Source: Escherichia coli (GTDB lineage: Bacteria > Pseudomonadota > Gammaproteobacteria > Enterobacterales > Enterobacteriaceae). Taken from it: a stretch of 64,000 nucleotides of DNA. Both the position numbers and the translations under genes were made by a program. Shown piece by piece: positions 23,760-52,309 of the stretch (position 1 is the first letter of the stretch; each line of letters begins with the position of its first letter). The notes under the pieces were generated by a model, which saw nothing but the letters and a program-made list of their open reading frames with translations, made no database searches and had not been told where the DNA came from. The DNA lies in assembly GCF_001677475.2 (NCBI RefSeq), contig NZ_CP015229.1, one strand, 5' to 3'.

Positions 23760-23955
23760 AAATTGCCCGTTTGTGAACCACTTGTTTGCAAACGGGCATG
23801 ACTCCTGACTTTTATTTCTGCCTTTTATTCCTTTTACACTTGTTTTTATGAAGCCCTTCACAGAATTGTCCTTTCACGATGCCGTCTCTATGATGATTGA
23901 TGTTAATTAACAATGCATTTACCAAAAACAAACATATAAATCACAGGAGTCGCCC

Positions 23956-40758: not shown

Positions 40759-42720
40759 GTGACCGTATCTTCTCATCGACTTGAACTGTTAAGCCCGGCA
40801 CGCGATGCCGCCATTGCCCGCGAAGCTATTTTGCACGGTGCCGATGCTGTTTATATCGGCGGCCCTGGTTTTGGTGCCCGTCATAATGCCAGTAATAGCC
40901 TGAAAGATATTGCCGAGCTGGTGCCGTTTGCCCATCGTTATGGTGCAAAAATTTTCGTCACGCTTAACACCATTCTGCATGATGATGAGCTTGAACCCGC
41001 GCAACGGCTGATTACCGACCTCTACCAGACCGGCGTCGATGCGCTGATTGTTCAGGATATGGGGATTCTGGAACTTGATATTCCGCCGATTGAACTGCAC
41101 GCCAGTACGCAGTGCGACATTCGCACGGTAGAGAAAGCGAAGTTCCTTTCTGATGTTGGCTTCACGCAGATTGTGCTGGCACGAGAGCTGAATCTTGAGC
41201 AGATCCGCGCGATTCACCAGGCCACGGACGCGACCATTGAATTCTTTATTCATGGCGCACTGTGCGTGGCCTATTCGGGTCAGTGCTACATTTCTCATGC
41301 GCAAACAGGGCGTAGCGCCAACCGTGGCGATTGCTCGCAGGCGTGCCGTTTGCCATACACATTGAAAGACGATCAGGGGCGGGTGGTTTCCTATGAAAAA
41401 CATCTGCTGTCGATGAAAGATAACGATCAGACTGCCAACCTCGGCGCGCTGATTGATGCTGGCGTACGCTCCTTCAAGATTGAAGGGCGTTACAAAGATA
41501 TGAGCTACGTGAAGAATATCACCGCCCATTATCGCCAGATGCTGGATGCCATTATTGAAGAACGTAGCGATTTGGCGCGAGCTTCATCCGGTCGTACTGA
41601 GCACTTCTTCGTACCGTCGACGGAAAAAACCTTCCATCGTGGCAGCACCGACTACTTTGTTAACGCGCGTAAAGGCGATATTGGCGCATTCGATTCACCG
41701 AAATTTATCGGCCTGCCGGTGGGTGAAGTATTGAAAGTGGCGAAAGATCATCTTGATGTTGAGGTTACCGAACCGCTGGCTAACGGCGATGGACTGAACG
41801 TAATGATTAAGCGTGAAGTCGTCGGCTTTCGTGCCAACACGGTAGAGAAAACTGGGGAAAATCAGTACCGCGTCTGGCCAAATGAGATGCCAGTGGAGCT
41901 GCACAAAATTCGCCCGCACCATCCGCTTAATCGCAACCTCGACCATAACTGGCAGCAGGCGTTGACCAAAACCTCCAGCGAACGTCGGGTGGCGGTAGAC
42001 ATTGAACTGGGCGGCTGGCAGGAACAACTGATTCTGACTCTGACCAGCGAAGAGGGCGTCAGTATCACTCATACGCTGGACGGGCAGTTCGACGAAGCGA
42101 ATAACGCCGAAAAAGCACTCCTCAATCTGAAAGAGGGATTGTCGAAGCTTGGGCAAACCCTCTATTACGCCCGCGATGTGCAAATTAATTTGCCGGGGGC
42201 GCTGTTTGTACCAAACAGTCTGTTAAACCAGTTCCGCCGTGAAGCTGCCGACATGCTGGATGCTGCACGTCTTGCCAGTTACCAGCGGGGCAGCCGTAAA
42301 CCGGTTGCTGATCCTGCGCCGGTTTATCCGCAAACGCATCTGAGTTTCCTCGCGAACGTATACAACCAGAAAGCGCGTGAATTTTATCATCGCTATGGTG
42401 TGCAGCTGATTGACGCGGCGTATGAGGCACATGAAGAGAAGGGCGAAGTCCCGGTGATGATCACCAAGCATTGTCTGCGCTTTGCCTTTAATCTGTGCCC
42501 GAAACAGGCGAAAGGCAATATCAAAAGCTGGAAGGCGACGCCAATGCAACTGGTTAACGGCGATGAAGTGTTAACGCTGAAATTTGATTGCCGCCCATGC
42601 GAGATGCACGTCATTGGCAAAATCAAAAATCACATACTGAAAATGCCGTTACCGGGAAGCGTAGTGGCATCCGTAAGTCCGGATGAGCTGCTGAAAACAT
42701 TGCCGAAGCGAAAAGGGTAA
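40759..42720 (+). CDS. rlhA: Peptidase U32-family protein (YdcP/RlhA)
   Basis: Track ORF 40717..42720; start placed at GTG 40759 to match remembered 653 aa (ATG 40717 is the alternative); Cys-rich C-terminus. Confidence 0.8.
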   Translation: MTVSSHRLELLSPARDAAIAREAILHGADAVYIGGPGFGARHNASNSLKDIAELVPFAHRYGAKIFVTLNTILHDDELEPAQRLITDLYQTGVDALIVQDMGILELDIPPIELHASTQCDIRTVEKAKFLSDVGFTQIVLARELNLEQIRAIHQATDATIEFFIHGALCVAYSGQCYISHAQTGRSANRGDCSQACRLPYTLKDDQGRVVSYEKHLLSMKDNDQTANLGALIDAGVRSFKIEGRYKDMSYVKNITAHYRQMLDAIIEERSDLARASSGRTEHFFVPSTEKTFHRGSTDYFVNARKGDIGAFDSPKFIGLPVGEVLKVAKDHLDVEVTEPLANGDGLNVMIKREVVGFRANTVEKTGENQYRVWPNEMPVELHKIRPHHPLNRNLDHNWQQALTKTSSERRVAVDIELGGWQEQLILTLTSEEGVSITHTLDGQFDEANNAEKALLNLKEGLSKLGQTLYYARDVQINLPGALFVPNSLLNQFRREAADMLDAARLASYQRGSRKPVADPAPVYPQTHLSFLANVYNQKAREFYHRYGVQLIDAAYEAHEEKGEVPVMITKHCLRFAFNLCPKQAKGNIKSWKATPMQLVNGDEVLTLKFDCRPCEMHVIGKIKNHILKMPLPGSVVASVSPDELLKTLPKRKG

Positions 42721-49555: not shown

Positions 49556-50980
49556 ATGCAACATAAGTTACTGATTAACGGAGAACTGGTCAGCGGCGAA
49601 GGGGAAAAACAGCCTGTCTATAATCCGGCAACGGGGGACGTTTTACTGGAGATTGCCGAGGCATCCGCAGAGCAGGTCGATGCTGCTGTGCGCGCGGCAG
49701 ATGCAGCATTTGCCGAATGGGGGCAAACCACGCCGAAAGTGCGTGCGGAATGCCTGCTGAAACTGGCTGATGTTATCGAAGAAAATGGTCAGGTTTTTGC
49801 CGAACTGGAGTCCCGTAATTGTGGCAAACCGCTGCATAGTGCGTTCAATGATGAAATTCCGGCGATTGTCGATGTCTTTCGCTTTTTCGCCGGAGCAGCT
49901 CGCTGCCTGCATGGTCTGGCGGCAGGTGAATATCTTGAAGGTCATACTTCGATGATCCGTCGCGATCCGTTGGGGGTCGTGGCTTCTATCGCACCGTGGA
50001 ATTATCCGCTGATGATGGCTGCGTGGAAACTGGCTCCGGCGCTGGCGGCAGGGAACTGCGTAGTGCTCAAACCATCAGAAATTACCCCGCTGACCGCGTT
50101 GAAGTTGGCAGAGCTGGCGAAAGATATCTTCCCGGCAGGCGTGATTAACGTACTGTTTGGCAGAGGCAAAACGGTGGGAGATCCGCTGACCGGACATCCC
50201 AAAGTGCGGATGGTGTCGCTGACGGGCTCTATCGCCACTGGCGAGCACATCATCAGCCATACCGCGCCGTCCATAAAGCGTACTCATATGGAACTTGGAG
50301 GCAAAGCGCCAGTGATAGTTTTTGATGATGCGGATATTGAAGCGGTGGTCGAAGGTGTACGTACTTTTGGCTATTACAATGCCGGACAGGATTGTACAGC
50401 GGCTTGTCGGATCTATGCGCAAAAAGCCATTTACGATACGCTGGTGGAAAAACTTGGTGCTGCAGTGGCAACGTTAAAATCGGGTGCACCGGATGACGAG
50501 TCTACGGAGCTTGGACCTTTAAGCTCGCTGGCGCATCTCGAACGCGTCAGCAAAGCGGTAGAAGAGGCGAAAGCGACAGGGCACATCAAAGTGATCACTG
50601 GCGGTGAAAAGCGCAAGGGTAATGGCTATTACTATGCGCCGACGCTACTGGCTGGCGCATTACAGGACGATGCCATCGTGCAAAAAGAGGTATTTGGTCC
50701 GGTAGTGAGTGTTACCCTCTTCGACAACGAAGAACAGGTGGTGAACTGGGCAAATGACAGCCAGTACGGACTTGCATCCTCGGTATGGACGAAAGATGTG
50801 GGCAGGGCGCATCGCGTCAGCTCGCGGCTGCAATATGGTTGTACCTGGGTCAATACCCATTTCATGCTGGTAAGTGAAATGCCGCACGGTGGGCAGAAAC
50901 TTTCTGGTTACGGCAAGGATATGTCACTTTATGGGCTGGAGGATTACACCGTCGTCCGCCACGTCATGGTTAAACATTAA
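49556..50980 (+). CDS. patD: Gamma-aminobutyraldehyde dehydrogenase (ALDH family)
   Basis: Track ORF, 474 aa; ALDH motifs ELGGKAP and catalytic Cys region. Confidence 0.9.
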
Positions 50981-51019
50981 GGATAATATTGCAGATCGTA
51001 AGAGTATGAGAAGATCTTG

Positions 51020-51054
51020 CGTACTGTCAGAGAGTTGATTTCTCTGACAGTACG
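51020..51054. terminator. Large hairpin between convergent patD and yncL (14-bp perfect stem)
   Basis: CGTACTGTCAGAGA / TCTCTGACAGTACG with 7-nt loop. Confidence 0.5.
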
Positions 51055-51076
51055 TGTTGCGTGCAAAATCACTACA

Positions 51077-51172
51077 TCAAATAAACCAGCCAAATCTCAT
51101 AGAGATAAGAGTAAACAAACCAACAGCAGCAAAGACATTTATCAGTACTACAGTTCTACTGGAAACATTCAT
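51077..51172 (-). CDS. yncL: Small membrane protein YncL (31 aa)
   Basis: Not in ORF track; hand-translated minus strand MNVSSRTVVLINVFAAVGLFTLISMRFGWFI. Confidence 0.7.
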   Translation of the reverse strand: MNVSSRTVVLINVFAAVGLFTLISMRFGWFI

Positions 51173-51366
51173 TTTTGCCACCTTTTATCATTGCCCCTAT
51201 GTGTATAGTACGGGTTAAGAAAATCCGCAATAATACTCATTCTGAAGATGGATAAGGGCAAGTTGCTGTTTGATGATTTTTTCTCAAACCGGTTAAAAAA
51301 CTTGATGTACATCAAAAAATGACGCATATTTGCGCGCGTTTTATTCATCTGGCTGGACGCCCGTAC

Positions 51367-51540
51367 ATGTCTTTCTATCAACACATGCTTGTTTTTTATG
51401 CGGTTATGGCAGCAATCGCATTTCTTATCACCTGGTTTCTTTCTCACGATAAGAAACGCATCCGTTTCTTAAGCGCCTTTCTGGTGGGGGCAACATGGCC
51501 GATGAGTTTCCCGGTGGCGCTGTTGTTTTCACTGTTTTAA
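51367..51540 (+). CDS. ortT: Orphan membrane toxin OrtT (YdcX), 57 aa
   Basis: In-frame within track ORF 51319..51540; start at ATG 51367 (MSFYQHMLVFYAVMAAIAFLITWFL...). Confidence 0.8.
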   Translation: MSFYQHMLVFYAVMAAIAFLITWFLSHDKKRIRFLSAFLVGATWPMSFPVALLFSLF

Positions 51541-51625
51541 ATCTTATGCATTGGCTTGACGGCACCACGCAGACTTATATCATTTGGATGAATCGATAAA
51601 TTTCACAAGTGGCTAAGGAGAAAGT

Positions 51626-51859
51626 ATGTCGCATCTGGATGAAGTCATCGCGCGCGTGGATGCCGCGATTGAAGAGAGCGTCATTGCCCATATGAACGAA
51701 TTATTAATCGCCCTGAGCGATGACGCGGAGTTAAGTCGGGAAGATCGCTACACCCAGCAGCAGCGTTTGCGCACCGCTATTGCTCATCACGGTCGCAAGC
51801 ATAAAGAAGATATGGAAGCGCGCCACGAACAGTTAACCAAAGGCGGCACCATCCTCTGA
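51626..51859 (+). CDS. ydcY: Small protein YdcY
   Basis: Track ORF, 77 aa; matches remembered YdcY. Confidence 0.8.
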   Translation: MSHLDEVIARVDAAIEESVIAHMNELLIALSDDAELSREDRYTQQQRLRTAIAHHGRKHKEDMEARHEQLTKGGTIL

Positions 51860-52309
51860 TTAAAATGAGCGTCTGGCCACCAACCAGGCGCCAACCACAA
51901 GTAAAATTGCGCCACAAATTGGTCCGAACAACGCCCGTAGTGGTACGCCATGACTGCGGAAGATATCCAGAACCAGACCGCCAATCAGCTGGCTGGCGAC
52001 CAGTACTGCAATAGTTGTCGCCGCTCCCACATTCTGATATCCGCTGATACTAGCGAAGACAAAAAACGAACCCAGCAAGCCAGGTATAAGTGTCCACCAG
52101 CGCACGCTGGACACCAGTTCGCCAAACCCCGCCATGCCTTGTTTAAACCATAAAATAGAAACAAAGAGCACAATCCCCACCAGTGAGTTCAGCAACATGG
52201 CGATGAGAATGGTAGAGGAGGTCTGGGTGATGCGCACCATAAGCGTGTTCTGGATTACCAGACCAATTCCGGCGGCAATCAAAAAAGCAAGGGTGAGCGA
52301 CTGATTCAT
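51860..52309 (-). CDS. ydcZ: DMT-superfamily inner-membrane protein YdcZ
   Basis: Track ORF, 149 aa; hydrophobic. Confidence 0.85.
   Translation of the reverse strand: MNQSLTLAFLIAAGIGLVIQNTLMVRITQTSSTILIAMLLNSLVGIVLFVSILWFKQGMAGFGELVSSVRWWTLIPGLLGSFFVFASISGYQNVGAATTIAVLVASQLIGGLVLDIFRSHGVPLRALFGPICGAILLVVGAWLVARRSF

Follow-up and report, generated by a model that had tools for sequence, protein, structure and literature searches.

The divergent region between yncL and ortT harbours a perfect 14-bp palindrome that we propose to be a high-affinity FNR operator placed on the core promoter of ortT, from which transcription would start at position 51338 of the 64-kb stretch of DNA analysed here (the window). 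We assign this reading, including the anaerobic repression of ortT that would follow from it, a probability of roughly 0.6. FNR, a member of the CRP/FNR family, senses oxygen through a [4Fe-4S] cluster and has the consensus TTGAT-N4-ATCAA. An FNR site at the orthologous position in Escherichia coli K-12 has been in the literature since 2007, and the box in the window is ordinary in kind. The present analysis adds the geometry, with the site centred at -29.5 relative to the transcription start site (TSS), and this geometry points to repression; the mechanism so proposed is new but modest.

Position and sequence context of the palindrome

The gene downstream of the palindrome is a 57-aa ORF on the plus strand (51367-51540) whose product shares 98% identity with OrtT (YdcX) of E. 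coli, an orphan membrane toxin (Islam et al. 2015). Its neighbours patD, yncL (divergent), ydcY and ydcZ are arranged as in E. coli. The palindrome itself, TTGATGTACATCAA, occupies 51302-51315. It had been singled out by a sequence-only reading of this DNA, and its description stands: the repeat is perfect, an AAAAAAC stretch precedes it and an A-run follows, its centre at 51308.5 lies 58.5 bp upstream of the ortT ATG where about 58 bp had been given, and it is situated between yncL (minus strand, ATG at 51172) and ortT (plus strand).

Palindromy of this length alone is not beyond chance in the window. Two perfect 14-bp palindromes are present compared to 4.8 ± 2.1 expected from first-order Markov simulations; the other one, GCAAATTAATTTGC, resides at 42180-42193 inside the rlhA coding sequence and probably arose by chance. 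The exact sequence TTGATNNNNATCAA has an expectation of 0.13 per 64 kb and occurs at least once in 12% of simulations. The palindrome is the sole exact match to TTGAT-N4-ATCAA in the window, and when one mismatch is allowed there are seven matches versus 3.5 expected. As these within-window statistics are unremarkable, the case for function rests on conservation and on published ChIP data. A sequence one mismatch removed from the FNR consensus, TTGATGTTAATTAA at 23897-23910, is the aldA site, which has been predicted but was unbound by FNR in ChIP-seq (Myers 2013).

FNR as the cognate regulator

Written as TTGAT-GTAC-ATCAA, the palindrome matches the FNR consensus at 10 of 10 half-site bases. 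It is also the same 14-mer as FF(-41.5), the laboratory consensus FNR site with a quoted Kd of ~14 nM. In K-12 MG1655 the orthologous site reads TTGATGCACGTCAA and underlies an FNR ChIP peak upstream of ydcX in three independent studies. The first reported an FNR target there by ChIP-chip (Grainger 2007); the second, combining ChIP-seq and ChIP-chip, found the ydcX peak in all datasets and among the taller ones, with a PatSer score of 14.54 (Myers 2013); the third, again by ChIP-chip, measured an FNR occupancy of 55.7 under fermentation and 32.8 under nitrate respiration, among the higher values listed (Federowicz 2014). FNR binding has thus been shown in the literature both for the 14-mer of the window, in the form of FF(-41.5), and for the K-12 orthologous site by ChIP. 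The sequence-only reading had considered the palindrome to be in the expected position for an operator or a promoter-overlapping regulator site and had left the regulator unnamed. Its first surmise is borne out by the consensus match, the K-12 ChIP data and the overlap of the box with the mapped ortT promoter; exact consensus, identity to FF(-41.5) and the three ChIP studies on the K-12 orthologue now supply the name.

The scoring matrix of Myers 2013 was recovered by linear regression on 148 sites from its Table S6, and no residual exceeded 0.006. Using this matrix, the window allele is predicted to score 16.87 versus 14.54 for the K-12 allele, and the two alleles that lie a single step away score 15.63 and 15.79. 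Among those 148 entries a value of 16.87 ranks third-highest, with only yfiD (17.25) and narK/nirB (17.06) above it.

Several other elements were considered and rejected. On inspection of the sequence, NsrR 11-mers and an IHF consensus were discarded; a sigmaE promoter was dismissed because AACTT and TCAAA are just 8 nt apart; and the single NarL heptamer, TACTCAT at 51234-51240, is within chance. The box is located upstream of both mapped start sites, which argues against an RNA hairpin, a terminator or any other RNA element, and an Rfam scan of 50900-51900 returned no family match.

Architecture of the ortT promoter

Transcription start site mapping in aerobic M9-glucose cultures of K-12 placed the ydcX start at 1515384, supported by 37 reads and giving a 29-nt 5'UTR, with an upstream sequence that ends in ...GCATATTTGCGCGCG (Kim et al. 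2012, Table S1). This upstream sequence, 51 nt in length, matches 51288-51338 of the window, and the TSS (a G) can therefore be transferred to 51338, again with a 5'UTR of 29 nt. This start, the beginning of the site in Myers 2013 (1,515,348) and the start of the gene (1515413) are mutually consistent; the site centre given by Grainger 2007 (1,515,344.5) is 10 bp off. The promoter geometry has thus been shown for K-12, and its transfer predicts the same geometry for the window.

Relative to the transferred TSS, the FNR site extends from -36 to -23 and is centred at -29.5. The box sits on the core promoter and overlaps the -35/-10/+1 region: its left half-site coincides with the -35 hexamer TTGATG (51302-51307, -36 to -31, plus strand), and its right half-site ATCAA (51311-51315, -27 to -23) falls into the 17-bp promoter spacer (51308-51324, -30 to -14). 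The -10 hexamer CATATT (51325-51330, -13 to -8) is 8 nt upstream of the TSS and 19 bp from the centre of the FNR site, and is followed by a GC-rich discriminator, TGCGCGC (51331-51337, -7 to -1), which reads GCGCGCG in most genera. Upstream of the box the AAAAAAC flank (51295-51301), with its A-tract at -43 to -38, may serve as an FNR flank, as a proximal UP-element-like sequence or as both. A simple sigma70 scan missed this promoter, which agrees with the consensus at 8 of 12 positions where the threshold was 9. The TSS for the ydcX peak is listed as unknown in Myers 2013, and in the literature that we searched the FNR site and the ortT TSS were not found combined.

An in-frame ATG at 51319 would extend the ORF to 73 aa (51319-51540). 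It lies upstream of the TSS at 51338, which implies that the annotated start of the 57-aa protein is the one used from the mapped promoter. Between 51324 and 51337 a fully conserved GCAT (100%) precedes the conserved GC-rich discriminator GCGCGCG, and this element, together with a CTTGATG 14 nt upstream of it, is similar to a promoter of the sigma32 type (CTTGAAA-N13-15-CCCCATNT); ortT has been reported to be induced by heat shock. In genomic SELEX, RpoS holoenzyme alone selects the spacer between ortT and yncL (peak at 1515332, intensity 28.5), a signal that could stem from either promoter, that of ortT or that of yncL. A GC-rich discriminator usually denotes negative stringent control, which contrasts with the reported induction of ortT in the stringent response. 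Further downstream a sigma70-like promoter, TTGACG-16-TATCAT, matches at 10 of 12 positions (51556-51583) just upstream of ydcY, so that ydcY may be transcribed independently of the ortT promoter, although ydcX-ydcY is regarded as an operon in one study (Federowicz 2014).

Conservation across the Enterobacterales

A scan for OrtT using one genome per species retrieved 80 loci from Escherichia, Citrobacter, Salmonella, Enterobacter, Kosakonia, Lelliottia, Leclercia, Phytobacter, Cedecea, Buttiauxella, Pantoea, Mixta and other genera. With few exceptions, the best FNR-like box of these loci is found 54.5-60.5 bp upstream of the ortT ATG. The conservation figures below refer to 77 distinct orthologous promoters anchored on the box. 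The left half-site is almost invariant (TTGA 100%, T5 97%) and so is the T-C-A core of the right half-site (99-100%), while the four bases between the half-sites carry merely 0.2-0.96 bits each. All ten consensus positions are matched in 34 promoters, nine in 28, eight in 13 and seven in two. Retention of the half-sites combined with a free spacer is the signature to be expected of a dimeric CRP/FNR-type site, and the pattern implies selection on the half-sites rather than on the 14-bp palindrome. The exact 14-mer TTGATGTACATCAA also occurs in Citrobacter sedlakii, and ATCAA right half-sites are found in other Escherichia species.

The flank immediately upstream of the box is likewise retained, with A at -4 to -2 from the box conserved to 90-91% and C at -1 to 95%, and 5' of this AAAAC the genera become unalignable. 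Strong conservation is otherwise confined to a block of GCATATT (92-100%) followed by GCGCGCG, which begins exactly 8 bp after the box with no gaps in any sequence. The -10 variants CATAGT, CATTAT and CATAAT all keep A2 and T6, as expected of a -10 hexamer.

The FNR box is absent from the more distant Klebsiella and Proteus homologues. In Klebsiella pneumoniae (locus L089, 1-574) yncL is divergent from a GhoT/OrtT-family gene whose product is 59.6% identical to OrtT, and the locus contains neither the FNR box nor the GCATATT element. The joint absence of the two suggests that the promoter has been replaced in the Klebsiella lineage, and a homologue without the box indicates that FNR control is not obligatory for the gene family.

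Direction of regulation

A site centred at -29.5 lies outside the activation window and on the core promoter, and hence has the geometry of repression. In the survey of Myers 2013, 19 of 23 directly FNR-activated promoters have their site at -41.5 ± 4, and the sites of directly repressed promoters range from -125.5 to +1, with gadE (-22.5) and can (-11.5) as examples. The left half-site of the ortT box furthermore consists of the very bases with which sigma region 4 has to make contact, which supports steric repression by holo-FNR under anaerobiosis. We infer that repression of ortT is the outcome of FNR binding. According to this model, dimeric FNR would occupy -36 to -23 of the promoter when oxygen is lacking and would exclude both sigma region 4 and RNA polymerase. 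Oxygen or NO would destroy the FNR cluster and relieve the repression, and OrtT would be made only when FNR is inactivated in this manner and a stress signal drives the promoter.

Nitrate is an endogenous source of NO. In anaerobically grown CFT073, which carries the K-12-type box, nitrate raised ydcX expression 11.85-fold along with that of cyoABCD and sdh. This fits the inactivation of FNR by NO and provides circumstantial support for repression; NarL/NarP or NsrR could equally be the cause. The published expression data are mixed. The ydcX peak belongs to those without an FNR-dependent expression change in glucose minimal medium, and the tables of the same study that list genes differing between aerobic and anaerobic growth, or showing altered sigma70 occupancy, do not contain ydcX (Myers 2013). 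For ydcX-ydcY the entry in Federowicz 2014 is N/D in the case of fermentation and 'Activation' by Fnr in that of nitrate respiration.

That label and the nitrate response of CFT073 would also suit a different reading, namely that FNR activates ortT-ydcY anaerobically, perhaps in conjunction with NarL/NarP under nitrate, from a second promoter of the class II type. Its start would be located ~12 nt further downstream, near 51350, so as to place the centre of the box at -41.5, and it would be invisible in aerobic TSS maps; inspection of some Enterobacter sequences reveals a TATTTT whose spacing would put the centre at about -43.5. We nevertheless regard such activation as unlikely. From the mapped start the centre is at -29.5 and not at -41.5 ± 4, and the hexamers ~32 bp downstream of it in the window and in K-12, GTTTTA and TTTTAT, lack the essential A at position 2. 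Among the 77 promoters the position expected for class II shows no conserved -10-like element with A2 and T6, whereas the distance between the box and CATATT is invariant. No change was recorded under fermentation. The 'Activation' label in the nitrate table extends to fnr itself, to the FNR-repressed nuo and to gapA and thrLABC, which suggests indirect, growth-related effects of the fnr mutant, and we have discounted it for this reason, although it leaves the activation model some weight. Since an fnr mutant is unable to respire nitrate, it would also forfeit whatever induction depends on nitrate or NO.

Like many FNR peaks of its class, that of ydcX is strong in ChIP yet unaccompanied by altered expression in glucose minimal medium, and this might signify that FNR binds without regulatory output, as a silent or architectural site, with conservation reflecting the -35 function of TTGAT alone. 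The distribution of conserved bases renders this improbable: the T-C-A of the right half-site is maintained within the promoter spacer even though RNA polymerase imposes no sequence need there, and the 4 bp between the half-sites vary. Moreover, a dimer bound to the -35 element cannot be neutral while the promoter is in use. Repression by FNR thus remains our preferred reading. In our literature search FNR regulation of ortT was not discussed, and the sole text containing both terms leaves them unconnected; ydcX/ortT is not mentioned in the supplements of a Shigella FNR RNA-seq study or of an iModulon paper, and the ortT homologue is missing from a K. pneumoniae TSS table.

Assignment of the site to ortT

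The sequence-only reading had tied the palindrome to the expression of both ortT and yncL, and of this pairing the ortT part is sustained and the yncL part is not. The yncL gene encodes 31 aa on the minus strand (51077-51172). Its start has been mapped to 51195 (K-12 1515241), with the -10 element TATACA at 51207-51202 and the -35 element TTGCGG at 51230-51225 (Kim et al. 2012). Regulation of yncL from the box could be entertained given that the intergenic region is shared and that the target is described as 'indistinguishable' (Myers 2013), but we consider it very improbable. The centre of the box is at -113.5 from the yncL start, YncL reportedly responds to heat shock and to minimal medium and not to oxygen limitation, and its regulation is N/D in both tables of Federowicz 2014. 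The yncL gene is detectable only in the loci of Escherichia, Citrobacter, Salmonella and Intestinirhabdus, apart from a single Pluralibacter locus whose match is weak (47%), yet the box and its distance to ortT are retained in ~52 loci that lack yncL, and the box is present on Pantoea megaplasmids as well. Persistence of the box without yncL, at a fixed distance from ortT, implies that the site travels with ortT. The comparative evidence thus assigns it, in all likelihood, to ortT and not to both divergent genes, an assignment that the present analysis adds.

That the palindrome is a mere chance occurrence, or the site of another regulator such as CRP, is extremely improbable: 14-bp palindromes may not be over-represented in the window, but the box is conserved across genera, direct FNR ChIP evidence exists for the K-12 orthologue, and the half-sites read cTTGAt...aTCAAa, with a T in place of the discriminating G of the CRP site (TGTGA-N6-TCACA, half-site tGTGAt).

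On the other side of yncL, between it and the convergent patD, the window contains a perfect 14-bp inverted repeat with a 7-nt loop (51020-51054, CGTACTGTCAGAGA-GTTGATT-TCTCTGACAGTACG), which is probably a shared terminator or a stabiliser hairpin. A terminator scan did not call this repeat, and it is not followed by a T-run.

Operator alleles and lineage of the window

The occurrence of operator alleles was determined in 5426 complete E. coli genomes using 36-mer megablast queries with a 28-base seed, such that a match is only obtained if the box is exact. The K-12 type TTGATGCACGTCAA dominates with 4729 genomes, followed by TTGATGTACGTCAA (453 genomes) and TTGATGCACATCAA (32 genomes); the perfect palindrome of the window, TTGATGTACATCAA, is found in nine. 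Two substitutions distinguish the window from the K-12 box, a C to T change in the spacer and a G to A change in the right half-site, the first A of which is replaced by G in most E. coli. Together they result in both the perfect consensus and the perfect palindrome of the window. By its predicted score the window would carry a rare allele of maximal strength, a point added by the present analysis.

No complete E. coli genome is closely similar to the window; around ortT the identity is 97.5-98.9%. The ortT stretch (50900-51900) reaches the upper value, and the rlhA stretch (41700-42700) is ~94% identical to essentially all 5426 genomes. The source genome may be either a divergent Escherichia lineage or a mosaic. 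E. coli strain 53 (locus L084, 76-885), which has the perfect-palindrome allele, carries a gene for a CatB-related O-acetyltransferase upstream of yncL in place of patD.

Biological meaning

OrtT is a toxin without an antitoxin, and so the manner in which its silence is kept matters. The authors who described it proposed tight transcriptional control via alternative sigma factors (Islam et al. 2015). If our reading is true, an FNR operator on the -35 element adds oxygen and NO as a second gate on ortT, and it would account for an FNR ChIP peak that is among the strongest of those lacking an assigned output. Going further, FNR may act as an anaerobic safety catch on this membrane-depolarising toxin, as a module that has been kept with ortT across the Enterobacterales including the Pantoea megaplasmids, and the E. 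coli alleles, with predicted scores of 14.5, 15.6, 15.8 and 16.9, may tune the silencing in hypoxic niches, the window having the tightest and a rare allele. We advance this wider interpretation tentatively and rate its chances at a little short of even. The four natural alleles constitute a ready-made series for relating operator strength to repression.

Comparison with known FNR sites

The closest known counterpart of the window site is the ydcX site of K-12 MG1655, which has the same position (58.5 bp upstream of the ATG), the same flanks and the same promoter, and differs in its sequence, TTGATGCACGTCAA, and hence in its score of 14.54 as compared to the 16.87 predicted for the window. FF(-41.5) is identical to the window site in all 14 bases and is a documented high-affinity FNR target; there, however, the site is located at -41.5 and FNR activates, whereas the window site has its centre at -29.5, on the -35 hexamer. 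At the FNR-repressed promoters of gadE (-22.5), can (-11.5), hisL (-11.5), fnr (-0.5) and ndh (-50.5), FNR is likewise positioned to compete with RNA polymerase, from sites outside the activation window. An FNR-dependent decrease has been measured for these five genes, in contrast to ortT, for which no change was seen in Myers 2013. The class II promoters of narG, nirB, dmsA and yfiD share with the ortT site the regulator and the consensus, and their site scores are comparable. The difference lies in the spacing: class II promoters have the site at -41.5 ± 4 and the -10 element ~32 bp from its centre, while in the ortT promoter the corresponding distance is 19 bp.
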